IMG/VR virus record: IMGVR_UViG_3300045988_150439
Origin: a virus
Lineage: Duplodnaviria; Heunggongvirae; Uroviricota; Caudoviricetes
Length of the DNA stretch: 64,000 bases
Strand: one strand, 5' to 3'
Shown: positions 14,475 through 24,591 of the stretch, one piece after another
How positions within the stretch are numbered: position 1 is the first letter of the stretch
Layout of the letters: the number at the start of each line of letters is the position of its first letter
Translations under genes and position numbers: made by a program
The notes under the pieces: generated by a model
Database searches by the model: none
Seen by the model: only the letters and a program-made list of their open reading frames with translations
What the model was told of the DNA's origin: nothing

Positions 14475-14549
14475 GATGGTGTAGCTCAGCGGTAGAGCAG
14501 TTGGCTGTTAACCAACTGGTCGGTGGTTCGAATCCACCCACCATCGCCA
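14475..14549 (+). tRNA. tRNA-Asn (anticodon GTT)
   Basis: Cloverleaf by eye: acceptor gatggtg/caccatc, D-arm gctc..gagc, anticodon stem gttgg/ccaac loop ctGTTaa, T-arm ggtgg-ttcgaat-ccacc, encoded CCA. Confidence 0.85.
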
Positions 14550-14551
14550 AT

Positions 14552-14627
14552 GCCGGTTTAGCTCAGTTGGTAGAGCACCTGCCTTGTAAGCAGGATGTCA
14601 GCGGTTCGATCCCGTTAACCGGCACCA
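14552..14627 (+). tRNA. tRNA-Thr (anticodon TGT)
   Basis: Acceptor gccggtt/aaccggc, anticodon stem cctgc/gcagg loop ctTGTaa, T-loop ttcgatc, encoded CCA. Confidence 0.85.
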
Positions 14628-14720
14628 ACACAACAGGTAAGAGCATTGGGCGAATCGGCGATACTGACCCACAAGCCCGTAAATCGATAGAGTCAGACCA
14701 GTGCTCTTACCGTTGTGAGG
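14626..14720 (+). ncRNA. long hairpin unit 1 (possible small stable RNA)
   Basis: 15-bp stem acaacaggtaagagca / tgctcttaccgttgt (one mismatch) enclosing ~55 nt; shares stem-base cacaac/gttgtg with units 0 and 2. Confidence 0.3.
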
Positions 14721-14764
14721 AAGTGCAGCTCTTTGAAGCAACCAGAAGATAAGCATCTGGCTTC

Positions 14765-14850
14765 ACAACACAACGATAAGATCATTACGGTTAATCGTCG
14801 TTCATGTGCACAATGACTGGTCGAAAGGTAGTGATCTTACCGTTGTGATG
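14765..14850 (+). ncRNA. long hairpin unit 2 (possible small stable RNA)
   Basis: 16-bp stem cacaacgataagatca / tgatcttaccgttgtg (one mismatch); 3' flank cttaccgttgtga[g/t]gaa shared with unit 1. Confidence 0.3.
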
Positions 14851-14947
14851 AATGCACAGGCTGATGTGCCGCAACTACAGTAGTGCGCGCTTTGCGGGGC
14901 TTGCTACAACCCTGTGTCGGAGTTCAGCACCGACCATCACAATAGCT

Positions 14948-15034
14948 GGAGAGTAGGGAGCATGGTGCTCAAGCGGTCTTGAAAACCGTCCCATTGCGCA
15001 AGCGATGATGGTTCGATTCCATTACTCTCCGCCA
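14948..15034 (+). tRNA. tRNA-Ser (anticodon TGA), type II
   Basis: Acceptor ggagagt/actctcc, anticodon stem gcggt/accgt loop ctTGAaa, long variable arm, T-loop ttcgatt, encoded CCA; about 87 nt. Confidence 0.75.
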
Positions 15035-15212: not shown

Positions 15213-16424
15213 TCAAAAAAGTTTTATAAATTCATAATTCTGGTCAATTAAGGATTCAATACACACCATGCAAAAATCTACATCGTTAAAATCAGGTGTG
15301 TAATATTCATCCTCATAACATTCATTTAGACCTTCAATCAATTTTTCTTTAAAAACTCCCCACGTTTCAATATGAACCATTTCCATATAAGGCGCATGTG
15401 TATGTACTTGCAATACATCCCAGGTGTCTATAACCTCGATCCGCGGCTTGCAATTAATTTTTTCTAAATATGCCCTCCCAGAATTGTAAATTTTCGACAT
15501 TGATGCCCCAAAACCTGATGGTTGGTAATGAGTGTAAATGTCATAAATTTTTTGTCCTATTCTAGGGAGTTGAGAAGCATTGGATATTTGTGGCGAATGA
15601 AAGTATCGCTCTATGGAAGAAAACGCAGAAACATTAACTAGAGTAATCGTATATGGTGCTAAAGTTCTCTCGTTCAAATTTCTACATAAAATAGCAAACC
15701 CATGGCTATTAGTCTTTTCACCGTCTGAGGACATTTTTGCCATGCTGGCTTTAATAACATTCAATTTCGAATGTAAACGAGAAGTGGAAGTCGGTTGATT
15801 ATACATTTCATCATCATACAAACATATATGAAACCCGCCAAGATGACGAAATGAGAACTTGAGTGCTTCTTCCGCAATAACTAATTTATTAATATCTAAA
15901 GGAGTAAGTGATACGTTACCTTGTAAATCATAGCAAGGTTCTAAACATAGAAAGTTTTTCTTCTGCCACACAATCATATTAAAAATAAAGTGTCTAACCA
16001 AAGGTGGCCAGTCAGGTGATATAAGTACATTGGTAATATCTCCATCAGACAAGTATGACAAGTAACTTTTTAGTTCCGCAGCATATGCCACTAGCTCAGT
16101 TCCAGCTTCCCTTGTTGGTGTTGAAAAATTTTTTAACTCAATAAGAACTAAGGATTCATTCTCTGTTGAATAAGCAACGACATCAGGTCTTAATATCTCA
16201 GATTTTGTTGCTGAGATATTTTCATCATCTGTCATTAAATGTAACAATGTTATATTCTTTAAACAAAACTGATAACTCTCCTTAATTTTTTTCTCTTCGG
16301 GTCTTTTCGGATTAAATTCATTTAATTTATCAATATTGATGATTGAATTATATAATCCATCTTGATCAGATAATTTGTCAATTATCCAATTTTGCATTTC
16401 CTTTTCGCTTAAAAATATTGACAC
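15213..16424 (-). CDS. 403-aa protein with PD-(D/E)xK-like nuclease motif; distal gene of AT-rich two-gene cassette (AbiGii position)
   Basis: GTG start; PDVVAY...SLVLIELK resembles a D..ExK restriction-endonuclease-fold motif; very AT-rich; 26 nt from upstream gene. Confidence 0.45.
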   Translation of the reverse strand: MSIFLSEKEMQNWIIDKLSDQDGLYNSIINIDKLNEFNPKRPEEKKIKESYQFCLKNITLLHLMTDDENISATKSEILRPDVVAYSTENESLVLIELKNFSTPTREAGTELVAYAAELKSYLSYLSDGDITNVLISPDWPPLVRHFIFNMIVWQKKNFLCLEPCYDLQGNVSLTPLDINKLVIAEEALKFSFRHLGGFHICLYDDEMYNQPTSTSRLHSKLNVIKASMAKMSSDGEKTNSHGFAILCRNLNERTLAPYTITLVNVSAFSSIERYFHSPQISNASQLPRIGQKIYDIYTHYQPSGFGASMSKIYNSGRAYLEKINCKPRIEVIDTWDVLQVHTHAPYMEMVHIETWGVFKEKLIEGLNECYEDEYYTPDFNDVDFCMVCIESLIDQNYEFIKLF

Positions 16425-16450
16425 TAATTAGGCTCCCGTTAAACCAAAAA

Positions 16451-17272
16451 TTAAAAATCTTGCTTTACTTTATCCATAGTCAGAATTTTGCTAATAATTG
16501 AAGATTCAAATCCATCTAAACCTGAGAGAAAGTTAATTAGCTTTTGGATATGTTGTTCTTTAGGTATAAGTATATATTTTATATCATTGAACTCAAAATC
16601 AATGCCAAACTTTGAAAATTTTGAGCTAATTTTTGCTTTGTCATCAGAAGTGATAACACGCTCCAAACTCAGACTAGGCCATAAATCACCAATAAAAGGA
16701 GCTGGCACATAACGCCACTCTTTCTCGTCTGCATATATATAATTCTCTATTGTTTTATTATCTTTTCGCTCTAGCTTGCCTCTGTAATTTTTCATATAAC
16801 GCAGTAAATTATATAGATCAGAATATTCTGCTTTCAATTTCTCAAACTCTATTCTGTTTTTGGTATCTAAATTTCCTCTAGCCTTCCAAAGCGGCACCAA
16901 CTTTTTTTTAATAAGTCGAATTCTGGCATTGTATTTAGAAAATATTTCACTGCTCTTATTCATATATAGAACTGGGTGTAGACCTTTCTTTTCCGCCCAA
17001 GACTTAGTTAGCCCAAGACCGAATTCCCCATATTTTCCGCTATGATCTCTGATTTGTGATAGTTTTATGTCACAAAACGATACCATTGGTACTGCAAACC
17101 TCCTGCGTCCCCCGACTCCTCTTATTTCCTCGCGAGCAAGAAATGGTTTAAAATATTTCTCAGCCAATATGCTATAGAAAGCATCTTCGTTTTTTGTAAA
17201 ATGAAACAACGTGGTTGGATGAAGACTATAAACAGATTCAACATTCGCATCAGGATTTTCAAGGATAGTCAT
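16451..17272 (-). CDS. AbiGi-like protein (candidate abortive-infection component)
   Basis: ORF 16451..17317; probable ATG 17272 follows AAGGTG. N-terminal LFHFTKNEDAFYSIL...PMVSFCDIKL...YGEFGLGL pattern resembles what I recall of AbiGi proteins; AT-rich. Confidence 0.4.
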   Translation of the reverse strand: MTILENPDANVESVYSLHPTTLFHFTKNEDAFYSILAEKYFKPFLAREEIRGVGGRRRFAVPMVSFCDIKLSQIRDHSGKYGEFGLGLTKSWAEKKGLHPVLYMNKSSEIFSKYNARIRLIKKKLVPLWKARGNLDTKNRIEFEKLKAEYSDLYNLLRYMKNYRGKLERKDNKTIENYIYADEKEWRYVPAPFIGDLWPSLSLERVITSDDKAKISSKFSKFGIDFEFNDIKYILIPKEQHIQKLINFLSGLDGFESSIISKILTMDKVKQDF

Positions 17273-17561
17273 TTTACACCTTGTGGAAAGCCAGTTTAGT
17301 TCTGTAAATAGTATCACACGACAGGCGGCTATTCTTCTATCAATAAAGGATAGGTAAGCACTTACTTTTTACGCGCGTTAATTGTATAGTTCTTTCGGAT
17401 ACTCACTTGAAAGGACTCAATATGGGAAATAAATGTAAACATGCGCGTCGCGCATCTCGTCAGGTGCAGAAGTCAAATCCATACATTCACGAGCACTACC
17501 ACCTCAGCTCTTTCACTAACCGCTACACGTTCCCCAGCGAAGCGCATAACGAGGCAAGGCA

Positions 17562-17807
17562 ATGACGATCACTATCTACGGACGAGATAACTGCTCATAC
17601 TGCAAACGTGCGGTCGAGCTGGCGAAGCAACTAAAGGGACATGGCTACGGTGATTATGAGTACATCGACATCACCACTGCCGGTATCGACAAGAAAAAAC
17701 TAAGTGAAATTGTTGGTAAACCGGTAGAGACTATCCCCCAGGTACTGATCGATGGCCAACCGATTGGCGGATACACAGAATTTGCTGCTTTTGCGAGCAC
17801 TCTGTAA
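17562..17807 (+). CDS. glutaredoxin-like redoxin
   Basis: 81 aa; CSYC active site near N-terminus; thioredoxin-fold size. Confidence 0.7.
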   Translation: MTITIYGRDNCSYCKRAVELAKQLKGHGYGDYEYIDITTAGIDKKKLSEIVGKPVETIPQVLIDGQPIGGYTEFAAFASTL

Positions 17808-17815
17808 TACAATAC

Positions 17816-17842
17816 GGCTCCTTTTGGGGCCATTTATTATTT
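17816..17842 (+). terminator. rho-independent terminator
   Basis: ggctcc-tttt-ggggcc hairpin followed by atttattatttg. Confidence 0.5.
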
Positions 17843-17902
17843 GTAGCTTTCATCAGCACAGCGTACACTTAGTTACGAGCCATTGAGTAGTTAAGAGGTT
17901 TT

Positions 17903-18511
17903 ATGCGTTTAGAAAATTGCCTAGAAGATATGAGTGTCATTAGCAATGCCCTTGCTACTGTGACCTCTAACGCTTCACGCTTTTCAAACGCAAAGCCTAC
18001 AGCTAAATCTGGGCGTGATTTTATTGAACCGCGTGGATATCGACGCTTCCGTGGCACGATGAAGCCCTCTGCGAAATTCACAGGATTCAAAACACAAACC
18101 TATGTGAGCACTGCGGCTATTCCTGTTCAAGAGAACCGCGATGCGGCACAGCTGGCAAAGATTGAAAGCAAGCTCGCAAAATTGACGGCGAAACACGTTC
18201 GCTTAGCCCATGCCATCTCTGGATGGAAAGCGGAAAAGATTCGCAGCAACTTCGGTGAAAGTCGTTACGAAGAACTGAAGAACGTTGACCTGACCATTCG
18301 TGGTTTGGAGGGATTCGTTAACAAGTTGATTCGCGACTCTGAGCAACCTCATCCATATTTGAAACGCTTGAGCGATTCTGTAACTGAGTATCGTTTAGCT
18401 ATCTCTGATCTGCTATTGATTTTAAATCAGTGTTTTAACGACGTAAACGTCATCGAATCGCAGACTGGCCTCATTGATGAGGACGTCTTCGCCAACTTCT
18501 CATTCCATTGA
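17903..18511 (+). CDS. hypothetical protein (possible antitoxin partner of downstream YafO-like gene)
   Basis: 202 aa ORF, Ala/Lys-rich central helix; ends 10 nt before the downstream gene. Confidence 0.4.
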   Translation: MRLENCLEDMSVISNALATVTSNASRFSNAKPTAKSGRDFIEPRGYRRFRGTMKPSAKFTGFKTQTYVSTAAIPVQENRDAAQLAKIESKLAKLTAKHVRLAHAISGWKAEKIRSNFGESRYEELKNVDLTIRGLEGFVNKLIRDSEQPHPYLKRLSDSVTEYRLAISDLLLILNQCFNDVNVIESQTGLIDEDVFANFSFH

Positions 18512-18520
18512 GGTTGAACG

Positions 18521-18931
18521 ATGAAGATCACATGGAACAGTGATAGTTACGCCCAATTTTTAAAGCCGACCTTCGATATAAAGCCTGACTTAGAGATTAC
18601 GTTACTCAACGATTTCAAGTCGTTTAAACAAGGCATGTACCCAGCCCTATTCGGCAAAGATGGCCCGTATACGGCTCCTGGTGCTATCGTGTCCTCCCGC
18701 GTTTATCACGTTCATCTCTTGTTCACGAAGCAAGAACGAACCAGCAGCCGCAGCAGATTCAATTGCACAAGCGACCGTGCACTCGTTTACAGTCAACATG
18801 CACATTTCCAAGATGTGTATAGCCTATTGGCAATCTTCCCTAACAACGCACATCAGTACGCGAAAGATCCAAAAATTATGGTCGATATCGCTGCCTACGC
18901 GGCCGCATTTCAAGCTCTCACTAACCCTTAA
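18521..18931 (+). CDS. YafO-like toxin candidate
   Basis: 136 aa; FKSFKQGMYPALFGKDG, VYHVHLLF, ALVYSQHAHF, LLAIFPNNAH blocks resemble my recollection of E. coli YafO. Confidence 0.4.
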   Translation: MKITWNSDSYAQFLKPTFDIKPDLEITLLNDFKSFKQGMYPALFGKDGPYTAPGAIVSSRVYHVHLLFTKQERTSSRSRFNCTSDRALVYSQHAHFQDVYSLLAIFPNNAHQYAKDPKIMVDIAAYAAAFQALTNP

Positions 18932-19104
18932 CAATCATATTAATAACGCCTCAGAATTTAAATTCCTCCCTTAAATGATTCCATACCTACTATGTATGGA
19001 ATCATTACTAAAAATGAGTTACTTTGACTCTTGATCCTATAAGAATCTATGCCTAATATACTGTTTACTTATACAGTGTATCGGCGTAACTCGGTGATTG
19101 TCAT

Positions 19105-20208
19105 ATGAAAAATAGCTTTGACAGAGCACGCGCAGCGGAGAACACCTCAAAAGAGGCGATTGAGTATCTCGAAAGAGCATCTCAAATGCAGGCCGTTATG
19201 ATCTCGCAGGTTAGCAATGACATGAGATTCTCAGACGCATTCATGTTATTCACTCGCTTATCTCTGCTAATAACAAGACGTCGGCCAGAGATCGCTGTTC
19301 ACTGTATTTTGATACATGTTTTGCCGCACATTGCTGATGTAAAAGTAAGTGACATTAATAGGTTCATGGTGAACCAACTGGTCAACCCACTAATACTGGA
19401 TGGCAAAATTGTTATGGGCCGCCGCGTTTTCTCTCTGATGAAGCAGTTCCTTAGCTGGTGCGCCTTCCAGGGGATGATAGACGTGTCACCGTTAAACGAT
19501 ATGTCACTTAACAAAGTTGCCGGTGGCGCAAAGCCCACACCTCGCGAGCGGAAGCTGACCGACGCAGAGGTATGGGTGTTCTGGAATATATGGGACTACT
19601 TCAATGTGTGTGCTGGTACAAAATGGGCGGCAAGGCTATGTCTTGTATCCGCAAGACGACCTGATGAAGTACTGCGGGCTAAAAAAAGTGAGTTCAATCT
19701 TAAGCGTGGGGTTTGGAATCAAGGCAAAAGAAACAAGTCAGCACGTGAGCATTCGCTGCCTTTAAGCACATTAATGCGCACATGCATTGAAGAGTTGTTC
19801 GAATACGGTAAAGATAGCCAGTGGCTCGTTCCTTCGAATAAAAAAATCGGGAAAGACCTTCCTATGTCTAAAGTGGCAATAGCCCAGGCATTACGTCGTA
19901 TTCTGGAACGACCAGAACTGATGGAGCTTGAGCCATTTACACCCCGAGATTTGCGCCGTACTGCGCGTAGTTACTTCCCAGCATTAGGCATAAGCCAGGA
20001 GGTATCACGTAAAATCATGAACCACAGTCTTGAGGGGATAGATCGGGTCTACGACCGGCACGATTATATGGACGAGATGCGAGACGCCTTAGAAAGTTTC
20101 TCGACGTACATCGCATCAATCGTAGAGCAACCGGATTTAGACGAAATTGACCACAAATTTAAGGGAGATCGTCTATCAACAGAGCTTATTCGTGTAAATT
20201 TTTCATAG
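19105..20208 (+). CDS. tyrosine site-specific recombinase
   Basis: 367 aa; C-terminal catalytic region with RDLRRTARS, HSLEG, and Tyr motif VYDRHDY. Confidence 0.7.
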   Translation: MKNSFDRARAAENTSKEAIEYLERASQMQAVMISQVSNDMRFSDAFMLFTRLSLLITRRRPEIAVHCILIHVLPHIADVKVSDINRFMVNQLVNPLILDGKIVMGRRVFSLMKQFLSWCAFQGMIDVSPLNDMSLNKVAGGAKPTPRERKLTDAEVWVFWNIWDYFNVCAGTKWAARLCLVSARRPDEVLRAKKSEFNLKRGVWNQGKRNKSAREHSLPLSTLMRTCIEELFEYGKDSQWLVPSNKKIGKDLPMSKVAIAQALRRILERPELMELEPFTPRDLRRTARSYFPALGISQEVSRKIMNHSLEGIDRVYDRHDYMDEMRDALESFSTYIASIVEQPDLDEIDHKFKGDRLSTELIRVNFS

Positions 20209-21151: not shown

Positions 21152-23260
21152 ATGTCTAAAAAACGTTCCATCAAAGAGGTTCAGGACTTCCGTGACAGTG
21201 TAAAACGAGTAGTCGCTCTCCTTTCAGGCAAAAACATCCCTGTTGCAGAACGAGGGGACGACGCTTATGTACGCTATAACGATGATGGAGAGCCAATTCT
21301 CGTAAACATCCCATCAATCCCGGATAACGCAACACCGGCATTGATGAATGCTGTGCGCGGATTTCTCGATCATGAGGTTGCTCACATTTTGTTTACCGAT
21401 ATTCGTGTGTCCAACAAAATGAGAGAAAAAGGACGCGTTCCTTCCTGGTCGCTATGGAATGCCTTAGAAGACGTGTTCATCGAGCGAAAAATGGGTCAGG
21501 TCTTTAACGGAACAAGACGTAATCTGATGGCAACTCAGCGCCTTATAATCGAAAAAGTCTTTAAACCAAAGGCTTCAGAGGCTATTGCTTATTGTGGCAA
21601 AGATCAGCGCGCGCTTTTTCTAAACTTCTTTCTCTGTCCGGTTGTAAGAGCCTGGGATGGCCAAGCACCGTTCGTAGATTTCATGGATGAATATTGGCCT
21701 GTCATTGAGAAACCAATTTCATTATTAAAAGAACATGGTATCGATGTGGCCATGCGTAACATGTCTTGCACCGAGGATTGTGTAAAGGTGGCTGCGACCA
21801 TAGCTAAGATCCTCAAAGACACTGAAAGTGAAAGCAAAGGTAAGGAGTCAGCTCCGGGAAAAACTTCCGATCCTTCAGACGCTGACCAGACGGATGCCTC
21901 TGGAGAAAATAATGAAGATAACGAAGATCATGAGACACCCTCAGCGTTAGATAATCACAAATCTATCAAATCAGAATCACACAGTAAGCACAAACATGAT
22001 AATAACGACAGTGATGATTCAGATAATTCTGAATCATCAGAAACAATATTCAATGATACAGAAAATGATAAAGAGGTATCAGATTCTGATGCTTCTGATA
22101 ACGCGGCGTCAGAATCATTAACCGCTGACCACGAAAAAAGAAAAACGACAGAAGACGGCTCTTCAGATATTCCAACTCCGTCAAAAATGAGTCTGGAAGA
22201 GGCTTTAGAGGTGCTGGATAGCATAGAAGATGAAGTCGGAGGCATGACAGAAGATGCTCTATCCGAAACGATTAAAAGCGAGTTAACAGAAAGCTCGAAA
22301 AGCGAATACAGGCCATACAATCGCTCATACGACTTCATCGGCTCGATTGATCAGGCAGAAGCCCATATCAAACGGCTTATTAAAACATTCTCCGATATTG
22401 ATTTAGGTGGATATCCAATCAGCCGTTATCGCATCGTTCCTGAAGGCAACCAACTCTTCGACAAATATATTGAAAAGCACCTTTCGTCAGGTGTTTCGTC
22501 GACGCTGGCAAAAGACCTGGAACGTGCAATAGCAAGCAGAAACAGAGTTCAGTTTATACCTGGCCAGCGTCGGGGGCGCATTCATGGTTCAAGTATCTAC
22601 AGATTAACAATGAATGATGATCGCGTGTTTCGTAAAAAAGAAGAATCTAAAGCCGTTAACGCCTGTGTTCAACAAGTGATTGATTTATCGGGTTCAATGA
22701 GTGGCGAAACGATAAAACTAGCTCTTGCAAGTGCATATACCATCGCCGATGCACTTGATCGAATAAATGTTCCCAACATTATCACCGGCTTCACTACATT
22801 TGGCAATCATATGGCAGCAGGAGAACTTAAGGCTATCAAATATGAGTTCTCTCGCTTTGAATCTTTAATGCTACCTATCATCAAAAATTGGAATGAAAAA
22901 GCAAATTCTCGCGAAGTTCGCTCACGTATGGGGTGCGTAGGCTACACATTCCCACTTCTTAATAACGTGGATGGTGAAAGCATAGCCAGCCTTGCATCGT
23001 TATTTTCCGGTCGCTTGGAGGACAGGAAGATCATGCTTGTTCTGAGCGATGGCGAGCCGTGGGCTGTTGGGAGAGGTTTTGACGCTCATTTGCGTTCGGT
23101 TGCGAAGCAAATTGAAACGCAGACTGACATTGATTTGATGGCAATTGGCATCATGACTGACGCACCGGAGAGATTTTACTCAAATCATGCCCTGGTAACG
23201 AGCGTTGATAGTCTTGGTTCATCTGTAGTTACTGAACTATCTCGTATCATTTTGAAGTAA
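21152..23260 (+). CDS. CobT-like VWA-domain protein
   Basis: 702 aa; long Ser/Asp/Glu-rich acidic linker; C-terminal VWA with MIDAS motif DLSGSMSG; AAA+ partner follows. Confidence 0.6.
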   Translation: MSKKRSIKEVQDFRDSVKRVVALLSGKNIPVAERGDDAYVRYNDDGEPILVNIPSIPDNATPALMNAVRGFLDHEVAHILFTDIRVSNKMREKGRVPSWSLWNALEDVFIERKMGQVFNGTRRNLMATQRLIIEKVFKPKASEAIAYCGKDQRALFLNFFLCPVVRAWDGQAPFVDFMDEYWPVIEKPISLLKEHGIDVAMRNMSCTEDCVKVAATIAKILKDTESESKGKESAPGKTSDPSDADQTDASGENNEDNEDHETPSALDNHKSIKSESHSKHKHDNNDSDDSDNSESSETIFNDTENDKEVSDSDASDNAASESLTADHEKRKTTEDGSSDIPTPSKMSLEEALEVLDSIEDEVGGMTEDALSETIKSELTESSKSEYRPYNRSYDFIGSIDQAEAHIKRLIKTFSDIDLGGYPISRYRIVPEGNQLFDKYIEKHLSSGVSSTLAKDLERAIASRNRVQFIPGQRRGRIHGSSIYRLTMNDDRVFRKKEESKAVNACVQQVIDLSGSMSGETIKLALASAYTIADALDRINVPNIITGFTTFGNHMAAGELKAIKYEFSRFESLMLPIIKNWNEKANSREVRSRMGCVGYTFPLLNNVDGESIASLASLFSGRLEDRKIMLVLSDGEPWAVGRGFDAHLRSVAKQIETQTDIDLMAIGIMTDAPERFYSNHALVTSVDSLGSSVVTELSRIILK

Positions 23261-23355
23261 TTAAAACAGCCTTAAAGATAAGTAACTACTTACCATAGTT
23301 AATGGTATATTTATATAAGAACTTGAACGCTCATTAGAGAACAAAGGAAAAGCGC

Positions 23356-24591
23356 ATGACTACTACTGCACTGCAAAATGAAAAAAATCATTCTGATTAC
23401 CTTGTTTGCAAGTGGTGCGGCAAATCATTTCACTATTTTAAGTCCCATGTAGCCAATGGTAATTGCGAGGGCATTCCTGAGTCAGTAAAAGATGCCGATC
23501 CTGACACCGTACTGAAAATGTACACAACGCAGTTTCCAGATGAACCAACGCTATCGAAAAAGGCACTTGATGCAATTCAAGCTAAACGTGCCGAGCAAAA
23601 AAGCGAAATGGCGAAATCTTCTGGCTTGACCAGTAGCCCAGGCTACACAGGCACAGTTGAGTACAAGACAGATCTGGTCGCAGCTCACGAACTGCTAAAC
23701 GTAACGGTGGAAGAACTCGGAACAAAACGTGGGACGCCGCTCATGGTTAGCGTCAACGTCAATACGCCGTATCCAGAGTTCGTTCCAGAAGTGAAGAAGG
23801 GCTACGTATATGGCGACTTCGAACTGATCAAAGATATTTTCATGATGCTTGAACTTGGCATACCTGGCTATTTGTGGGGTCATGCAGGAACAGGCAAATC
23901 GTCATTGCCTACACAGCTATGTGCTTTGCTCAATCGTCCGTTGATCCGTGCCCAACATACAGCATCAATGGAAGAGGCACATGTTACGGGGCAAATTCTG
24001 GCGCGTGATGGCTCTACGTATTTCGAACCTGGCTTGCTTGCGCTCGCAATGAAGCATGGCTGGGTTTACCTCGCGGATGAATACGACTTTGCGTTTCCAC
24101 AAATTCTTGGCGTGTATCAGCCAGTGCTGGAAGGTGAGGCGTTGGTCATCAAAGAGGCAACTCCAGAATGGCGTCGCATTACTCCGCATGAACGGTTTGC
24201 TTTCATTGGCACTGGCAACACAAACGGTTCTGGTGATGAAACCGGCTTGTACCAGGGTACAAACATCCAGAACGCCGCGAACTTTTCGCGTTTTGGCATC
24301 GTTTCGAATGTGAAATACATGAGCAAAGACGCAGAGATCAACATGTTGATAAATGCCGGTATCGTGGATGAATACGCTGAAAAGATGGTTAAGTTTGCCG
24401 GTATCGTTCGCGATGGATACGAAGAACACCTTATCAGTCAGCCAATTGGCCCTCGTGAACTTTTGTTGTCGGCCAAGATTGGAATGATGCGAGGCGACTT
24501 TGTGACAGGTATTGAGCGTTCTTTCATTAACAAACTCCCTTCAGCTTCTGCACAAGCGGCTCGTGAAGTTGTTCAAAAAATATTTGGTTAA
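23356..24591 (+). CDS. MoxR/CobS-like AAA+ ATPase
   Basis: Walker A GHAGTGKSS, Walker B VYLADEYD; N-terminal Cys cluster CKWCGKSF. Confidence 0.65.
   Translation: MTTTALQNEKNHSDYLVCKWCGKSFHYFKSHVANGNCEGIPESVKDADPDTVLKMYTTQFPDEPTLSKKALDAIQAKRAEQKSEMAKSSGLTSSPGYTGTVEYKTDLVAAHELLNVTVEELGTKRGTPLMVSVNVNTPYPEFVPEVKKGYVYGDFELIKDIFMMLELGIPGYLWGHAGTGKSSLPTQLCALLNRPLIRAQHTASMEEAHVTGQILARDGSTYFEPGLLALAMKHGWVYLADEYDFAFPQILGVYQPVLEGEALVIKEATPEWRRITPHERFAFIGTGNTNGSGDETGLYQGTNIQNAANFSRFGIVSNVKYMSKDAEINMLINAGIVDEYAEKMVKFAGIVRDGYEEHLISQPIGPRELLLSAKIGMMRGDFVTGIERSFINKLPSASAQAAREVVQKIFG

Follow-up and report, generated by a model that had tools for sequence, protein, structure and literature searches.

A viral record of 64,000 nucleotides (IMG/VR IMGVR_UViG_3300045988_150439; this whole stretch is called the window below) carries a gene for a YafO-family toxin (gene T) and, directly upstream on the same strand, a longer gene for a partner protein (gene A). 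The window is an SSU5-type phage-plasmid with an Escherichia coli host. E. coli plasmids some 110 kb in length (e.g., NZ_CP074122.1) contained the pair and its near flanks (17850-18960) at 100% identity, and 17400-19100 was 98.9% identical to 'Escherichia phage CMS-2020a'. A first-pass annotation, made from the letters alone, had proposed a YafO-like toxin with an atypically long partner between 17903 and 18931, and both open reading frames were found exactly there, encoding 136 and 202 amino acids, respectively. As set out below, A-T is probably a toxin-antitoxin (TA) module of type II on the phage-plasmid, with A as the dedicated antitoxin of a new family.

The toxin gene and its long upstream partner

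The product of T matched the Pfam family PF13957 (YafO_toxin) with 77.7 bits, far above the gathering cut-off of 25 (E = 7.9e-22, profile positions 2-100 of 101), and it was 35% identical to YafO of E. coli K-12 (from NC_000913.3) over 110 residues (BLASTP, E = 2e-13). Its score against the NCBIfam YafO equivalog NF007377 was 57.4 bits, below the cut-off of 153; T is thus a member of the YafO family and not an orthologue of K-12 YafO. RefSeq/PGAP names it 'type II toxin-antitoxin system YafO family toxin'. The four short blocks in which the first-pass annotation had recognized YafO were confirmed at residues 44-48 (FGKDG), 61-66 (VYHVHL), 87-96 (ALVYSQHAHF), and 102-107 (LLAIFP), and they lined up by BLASTP and MAFFT with FGRDA, VAHIHL, HLVYCQGAF, and LIAILK of K-12 YafO. 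K-12 YafO lacks the N-terminal segment MKxTWNSDSY... present in T. In an alignment of 11 sequences (T, relatives at 43% identity or more, and K-12 YafO), D31, K36, Y50, H63, H65, T83, Y90, and H111 were invariant, and these eight residues are a candidate catalytic set. The AlphaFold2 model of T (mean predicted local distance difference test score [pLDDT] of 67) showed a RelE/HigB-like microbial ribonuclease fold, and the protein is basic (isoelectric point [pI] of 9.0). Sequence searches of the PDB with A, T, and their profiles returned nothing meaningful, and no solved structure of the YafO family was found. The sole PADLOC match of T (PDC-M55B, E = 0.015, 13 bits) was non-significant.

The product of A is named 'hypothetical protein' in RefSeq. 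It had no match in Pfam, NCBIfam, PADLOC, or the PDB, and its sole family assignment was to phrog_13546 ('unknown function', E = 4e-124). The family formed 26 clusters at 90% identity in a collection of 5.8 billion proteins, and a profile search gave 11 matches at E < 0.001 among 1.84 billion representatives. Homologues were 162-205 amino acids long; shorter entries (150, 148, and 136 amino acids) were mostly alternative start-codon calls. Natural truncations of A were considered as a guide to its essential segment and mostly set aside, as they are largely such start-call artefacts and the two real lesions are single cases. The ratio of nonsynonymous to synonymous substitution rates (dN/dS, Nei-Gojobori) was 0-0.26 in the N-terminal helix, core, and tail, indicating purifying selection, and 0.3-0.6 in the linker, where selection was relaxed. 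As purifying selection extended across A, the complete 202-residue frame represents a real protein.

The upstream gene had been described as about 200 residues long and not of the YafN/Phd type, and this description held on four counts, namely its Shine-Dalgarno sequence, purifying selection, the lengths of its homologues, and the lack of similarity to YafN. No BLASTP alignment between A and the 97-residue YafN was obtained at E <= 100, the hhalign probability was 0.1-0.4%, and the Phd/YefM fold (PF02604) was absent from A by Pfam, BLASTP, and hhalign. Structure prediction, which had been proposed as a check, gave a three-helix bundle instead of a Phd/YefM fold.

A consists of four segments (Table 1), and its AlphaFold2 model had a mean pLDDT of 62 (76-87 in the core). 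Foldseek searches of the PDB with the model retrieved generic or designed helical bundles only (best E = 0.07). The linker differed in length and sequence among members and is an insertion specific to family A. The N-terminus of the family is not signal-peptide-like, with an n-region charge of -2 and an interrupted hydrophobic stretch. In the tail, S186, T188, F196, F199, and F201 were invariant in the alignment of the A family. Approximately 45% of A was predicted to be disordered (residues 1-7, 28-74, and 181-202), and such predicted disorder would be compatible with proteolytic lability. The tail (...DEDVFANFSFH) was also considered as a YafN-like motif (YafN orthologues end in ...SDKDLTEFTE); this was rejected, as hhalign found no relation and did not pick the tails.

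Upstream of A, the promoter-like element matched 7 of 12 consensus positions and was missed by a consensus scan. In the form TTGT[AC]GCTTTCATC...GCGTA[CA]ACT, it also precedes the chromosomal A of Erwinia and the A of metagenomic copies, where the flanks are unrelated, and nucleotide homology to the copy of Erwinia sp. JUb26 starts at 17840, exactly at this element. The start of homology and the conserved element together indicate that the module carries its own expression signal, and the element is a putative promoter. The arrangement aagaggtttt-ATG at the start of A was also present in three homologous loci (L017, L004, and L014). The two genes run in one direction and share a frame, with TGA-GGT-TGA-ACG between them; the gap is 9 nucleotides here and 2, 8, 9, 11, or 12 nucleotides across homologous loci. 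Same-frame read-through from A into T was rejected as a feature, as the gap length varies in homologues and the frame relation is not conserved. A candidate operator was also rejected, consisting only of weak direct repeats (TAGTTAcGAG and TAGTTAaGAG) that are not kept in the Erwinia copy; in a second clade, an inverted repeat follows the -10 element. No RNA antitoxin was detected at the locus with Rfam, apart from a chance match on the grxA terminator hairpin, and neither tandem repeats nor another conserved open reading frame, RNA family, or repeat array was found there as an alternative antitoxin.

Table 1. Positions of the genes, segments, and signals at the A-T locus, numbered from the first letter of the window
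Feature	Position	Strand	Basis or remark
AbiGi-type pair	15213-17317	-	Neighbour of the cassette
grxA	17562-17807		Upstream neighbour of A
Cassette (promoter, A, T)	17780-18973	+	Homology to the Cyrano backbone ends at 17779 and restarts at 18974
Terminator-like hairpin	17816-17831		Separates grxA from A-T
Promoter-like element	17841-17869	+	-35 TTGTAG (17841-17846), 17-nucleotide spacer, -10 TACACT (17864-17869)
Shine-Dalgarno AAGAGG for A	17893-17898	+	Read from the sequence
Gene A, 202-residue partner, candidate antitoxin (phrog_13546)	17903-18511	+	Open reading frame; always directly upstream of a YafO gene
A 1-28, conserved N-terminal helix MRLENCLEDMSVISNALATVTSNASRF	17903-17986	+	Alignments; AlphaFold2 helix 3-28; low dN/dS
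A 29-74, variable basic disordered linker	17987-18124	+	pLDDT 31-35; net charge +8; pI 11.1
A 75-180, three-helix bundle core with RGLEG motif	18125-18442	+	AlphaFold2 helices 75-106, 110-145, 151-178
A 181-202, acidic aromatic disordered tail ...ESQTGLIDEDVFANFSFH	18443-18508	+	pLDDT 37-43; net charge -4; low dN/dS
GAGG ribosome-binding site for T	18510-18513	+	Overlaps the stop codon of A, 7 nucleotides before ATG
Gene T, 136-residue YafO-family toxin (predicted RelE/HigB-like endoribonuclease fold)	18521-18931	+	Open reading frame
Tyrosine recombinase gene	19105-20208		Downstream of T; followed by a helix-turn-helix (HTH) regulator

Linkage, transfer, and plasmid relatives of the pair

All fetched loci were scanned with our own hidden Markov models for A and T. 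Eighteen loci contained A, which in each case lay on the T strand and immediately upstream of T; a complete T followed wherever the contig continued (16 loci), one more locus had a T fragment at the contig end, and two contigs stopped just past A. The yafO gene of K-12 was the sole YafO gene in the scanned loci without an A-family open reading frame upstream. The loci represent about eight independent contexts with unrelated flanking genes: phage-plasmids of E. coli, Klebsiella, and Kluyvera; the chromosomes of Erwinia, Brenneria goodwinii, and Pluralibacter gergoviae; draft contigs of Samsonia and Pectobacterium; and metagenomic contigs. On the phage-plasmid, the promoter-like element, A, and T form a swappable cassette of 1.2 kb between grxA and the tyrosine recombinase gene (int). 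Phage Cyrano lacks both A and T, and a different gene on the opposite strand occupies its slot. The proposed pairing of the two genes is therefore borne out across loci, where they are strictly conserved together and jointly mobile.

In PLSDB (tblastn), A was present on 317 plasmids and a T-type toxin (at least 60% identity) on 313; the backbone recombinase was present on 601 plasmids, of which approximately half had the cassette. The identities of A and T co-varied (r = 0.91 over 66 non-independent pairs). The partner was always more diverged than the toxin, with mean identities within the family of 41% and 53%, respectively, and faster divergence of the antitoxin than of the toxin is usual for antitoxins. 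A genome-wide locus scan with a narrow peptide pattern returned three loci. A near-identical variant of the pair, named from Shigella sonnei, was found on about 600 contigs, and carriers of a long partner included SSU5-type phage-plasmids of Klebsiella, Enterobacter, E. coli, and Salmonella.

The chromosomal copy of Pluralibacter gergoviae (L014, 2374-2414) is accompanied by what remains of the 3' end of grxA and the terminator region (83% identity over 42 nucleotides), and a metagenomic copy (L004) likewise has such a remnant upstream of A. These remnants suggest that both copies derive from an SSU5-type element. A 1.08-Mb contig of Erwinia sp. JUb26 (RJVB01000001.1) carries an orthologue of YafN (63% identity to K-12 YafN) together with the A-T module, a natural setting in which the two YafO partner types could show cross-talk or insulation.

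PLSDB further contained 216 plasmids with distant YafO-family toxins, approximately 30% identical to T. In all six distant-toxin plasmids inspected, an unannotated protein of 174-178 amino acids was encoded directly upstream of the toxin, with a 10-nucleotide overlap or an 8-nucleotide gap, and four of the six pairs lay in the grxA-int slot of SSU5-type plasmids. These partners, termed A' (e.g., WP_003980692.1 and WP_040177223.1) and A'' (WP_006812569.1), with a bridging form (WP_023287162.1; L028, NZ_CP062987.1), were found on 258 plasmids, and A' and A'' had no match in Pfam. The layout is that of A-T, with a helical protein of about 175 amino acids before a PF13957 toxin. The pairing in the window had been called non-canonical in the first-pass annotation. 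This is correct relative to yafNO of K-12, but not on plasmids, where a long partner is usual (317 plasmids with A against 313 with its toxin, and 258 with A' or A'' against 216 with theirs).

A was only 9-18% identical to A' and A'', and the direct profile comparison of A with A' was weak (probability 2.8-6.5%). The bridging partner was matched by hhalign both to the A family (probability 80%, E = 1.4e-5), spanning the entire bundle and with a common RGLEG motif, and to A'/A'' (probability 78%, E = 1.8e-5). When it was combined with A'/A'', the comparison with A reached a probability of 53% (E = 1.3e-4) over 103 co-linear columns. The combined alignment of A, A', and A'' was co-linear, with Q176 and S186 invariant and an aromatic residue near the C-terminus. 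The 46-residue basic linker is missing from A' and A'', whose tails finish with AAKW[HLR], not with FANFSFH. From these comparisons, a single superfamily of long YafO partners (A, A', and A'') is probable. K-12 YafO was 42.5% identical to one A-paired toxin, which exceeds the identity between the A-paired and the A'-paired toxins; on thin sampling, this closeness hints that the pairing with YafN may be derived.

Neighbours of the cassette on the phage-plasmid

The AbiGi-type pair next to the cassette consists of an AbiGi-family gene (16451-17317, minus strand; PADLOC AbiGi, E = 6.5e-47; Pfam PF10899) and a gene for a 403-residue protein (15213-16424, minus strand). The latter had no AbiGii match and a weak match to HSDR_N_2, the N-terminal domain of the R subunits of type I restriction enzymes. 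Judged from these matches, the two genes are a predicted AbiG-like defence pair with a non-standard second component. The pair is missing from phage Cyrano. Upstream of it, at 14475-15034, lies a tRNA cluster (Asn-GTT, Thr-TGT, and Ser-TGA) that is also present in Cyrano.

The gap between T and the recombinase gene contains an inverted repeat (18974-19006; AATGATTCCATAC-ctactat-GTATGGAATCATT) with perfect 13-bp arms (16 nucleotides at 94% if extended). It starts at the exact point where backbone homology restarts, and its position is kept in phage Cyrano and in one Klebsiella phage-plasmid. Its lox/FRT-like architecture suggests a recombination site (dimer-resolution or att) for the adjoining recombinase; alternatively, it may be a bidirectional terminator. 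Further downstream (21152-24591), a 702-residue vWA/CobT-like protein with an acidic low-complexity middle is followed by an AAA ATPase, and these are annotated as CobT and AAA family ATPase. The vWA/CobT-like protein had a weak PADLOC match to DrmE (E = 2e-4), and the two genes appear to be a conserved backbone pair of SSU5-type elements.

The pair as a type II module and the alternatives

A and T form a two-gene operon with the putative antitoxin first and tight spacing, which is the type II layout, and they are inherited, lost (in Cyrano), and transferred jointly, as befits a type II unit. The family membership, invariant residues, and fold of T count for a toxin role; the acidic, conserved, disordered tail of A, opposite the basic T, counts for binding through the tail; and the distant plasmid YafO pairs of the same layout count for a module. 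From these observations we infer the toxicity of T, the binding, neutralization, and lability of A, the binding segment, and the biological role.

In the proposed mechanism, T would be a YafO-family endoribonuclease with a RelE/HigB-type fold, cutting mRNA and thereby arresting translation. A would be translated first from the same transcript and would sequester T by direct binding via one conserved flexible end. The favoured segment is the acidic aromatic C-terminal tail, which would be disordered alone and fold onto the basic T; in complexes of the RelE superfamily, the antitoxin tail folds onto the toxin. The other candidate is the conserved N-terminal helix, and HigA2, the antitoxin of the best structural match of T, binds via its disordered N-terminus. 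The three-helix bundle of A may serve oligomerization or scaffolding. Upon loss of the element or degradation of A, the more stable T would be freed and would penalize loss of the phage-plasmid or its displacement by an element with another allele in the slot. The likely role on a low-copy phage-plasmid is post-segregational addiction or the exclusion of related elements with other slot alleles.

Among the closest known systems is YafN-YafO of the K-12 dinB-yafN-yafO-yafP operon, whose toxin belongs to the same Pfam family with the same invariant residues as T and whose antitoxin gene is likewise immediately upstream with tight spacing. However, YafN is a 97-residue protein of the Phd/YefM fold, whereas A is a 202-residue three-helix-bundle protein, and yafNO lies in the SOS dinB operon, whereas A-T is a free-standing cassette with its own promoter-like element. 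HigB toxins were 6-8% identical in sequence to T. In HigB2-HigA2 of Vibrio cholerae, the antitoxin HigA2 has an HTH DNA-binding domain and its gene is downstream of that of the toxin, whereas A has no HTH and its gene is upstream. The toxin and antitoxin families of phd-doc of phage P1 (Doc, a Fic-fold kinase, and Phd, a YefM-fold protein) are unrelated to T and A. Like A-T, phd-doc is a two-gene addiction-type module on a phage kept as a low-copy plasmid (PMC7969092).

Several observations weigh against a type II module of this kind. A had no HTH, ribbon-helix-helix, AbrB, or Phd domain by Pfam or NCBIfam, and autoregulation is thus without an obvious basis, although a DNA-binding antitoxin domain is common and not obligatory in type II systems. 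A showed no similarity to any known antitoxin, and its basic character (pI 9.2) and large size are atypical for a type II antitoxin. The likeness between the tails of A and YafN (an acidic run and F/L-x-x-F at the C-terminus) is compositional only and was not supported by profile comparison, and both AlphaFold2 models are of moderate confidence only. Lesions of A beside an intact T are also known. In the E. coli plasmid CP059990.1, three clustered indels in A (corresponding to 18267-18310 of the window) lead to two in-frame stops, and in Klebsiella RDAV01000003.1, a 2-nucleotide deletion detaches the N-terminal helix of A. T of CP059990.1 is intact except for A124T, at a position that is otherwise invariant, and two independent short-read contigs both stop exactly at codon 121 of A. 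The CP059990.1 lesion and the codon-121 ends may reflect mixed alleles, an artefact of sequencing, or a genuine loss of the antitoxin that has been compensated; both lesions may be sequencing or assembly errors. Finally, the N-termini of A' and A'' are signal-peptide-like in five loci (L025-L027, L029, and L030; NZ_CP084394.1, NZ_CP079773.1, NZ_CP129243.1, NZ_CP095277.1, and NZ_CP077807.1), e.g., MKDSITKIAMVVALALSSLSHGSYA|KD, with a positive n-region, 8-9 hydrophobic residues, and an AXA-like site. If A' and A'' are homologous to A, such N-termini would fit poorly with a cytoplasmic antitoxin.

A may also neutralize T in a system whose primary role is abortive infection, with A as a sensor that releases T on infection; its bundle or linker would be bound, modified, or degraded by a competing phage. 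We consider this unlikely, but because of the neighbouring Abi genes it is a serious alternative: the cassette adjoins the AbiGi-type pair, and it is near AbiH in a Klebsiella relative. Several divergent alleles occupy the grxA-int slot, a hotspot pattern typical of defence loci, yet the chromosomal copies lie among housekeeping genes and not in obvious defence islands. A is bigger than neutralization alone needs, but no known sensor domain was found in it, and PADLOC gave no match for A and only the non-significant one for T. While SSU5-group phage-plasmids reportedly often carry defence systems (bioRxiv 10.1101/2025.09.12.675607), addiction is the classical role of TA modules on low-copy phage-plasmids, phd-doc of P1 being an example (PMC7969092).

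It is distinctly unlikely that A, A', and A'' are one superfamily acting beyond sequestration, in which the bundle and N-terminus would be a sensor or localization device (e.g., of a trigger-responsive or membrane-associated antitoxin). The K-12 pairing with YafN would then be a derived exception, and textbook control of YafO would be unrepresentative of most of the family.

Less probable again is an indirect action of A, either by type IV-like target protection via binding of the ribosome or RNA, or as a co-factor, chaperone, or localization factor of T. The basic character of A and its disordered linker (+8) would suit such an action, but the linker is the least conserved segment and mostly absent in shorter members and in A' and A'', and thus is unlikely to be a core function. 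A lacks an antitoxin-like or DNA-binding domain, and A' and A'' have signal-like hydrophobic N-termini; on the other hand, the conserved helix, bundle, and acidic tail suit protein-protein binding, and the pair moves to chromosomes on its own, implying self-sufficiency. An association of K-12 YafO with 50S subunits has been reported, and its ribosome dependence is disputed (PMC8546651).

It is very improbable that A-T is not a functional TA module, with T an inert or domesticated YafO-fold protein and the genes merely co-operonic accessories: T is below the equivalog cut-off (57 against 153 bits) and K-12 YafO was among the two toxins with the least transcriptome-wide cleavage in a survey (PMC8546651), but the residues that T has in common with the active K-12 toxin do not vary within the clade, the strict linkage of the genes and their joint loss and transfer are typical marks of addictive pairs, and both genes show purifying selection or conservation over 40-50% divergence.

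K-12 YafO is an established endoribonuclease toxin whose link to RelE is described as weak and whose ribosome dependence has been questioned (PMC8546651). YafO toxins have been found with Phd-type antitoxins and with unclassified partners, and partner swapping among TA toxins is well documented (Leplae et al., PMC3141249). A survey of the E. coli pangenome listed 13 partner clusters for YafO_toxin, 8% of them known (PMC10790755), and a Klebsiella survey gave YafO_toxin groups with partner clusters in its supplement, none of which was tested there (PMC7192599). We found no description or test of the A family or of a long YafO partner in the literature, and no link of YafO to SSU5-type phage-plasmids or to NetFlax. 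The new element is thus an undescribed, widespread candidate antitoxin family; the toxin family is known, and T was already annotated automatically.

The type II reading of A-T would fill a modest but real gap in knowledge of TA systems and introduces no new principle. YafO is among the least understood ribonuclease toxins of E. coli, and outside the K-12 chromosome YafO toxins have different, much larger, and unannotated partners, on approximately 575 PLSDB plasmids. Lineages of clinical importance have been associated with SSU5-group elements (bioRxiv 10.1101/2025.09.12.675607). Should A prove to be the antitoxin, a new antitoxin family would be defined, and hundreds of records could carry a correct name in place of 'hypothetical protein'. 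The pair would also provide a tractable system for the effect of divergent TA slot alleles on the stability and competition of phage-plasmids.

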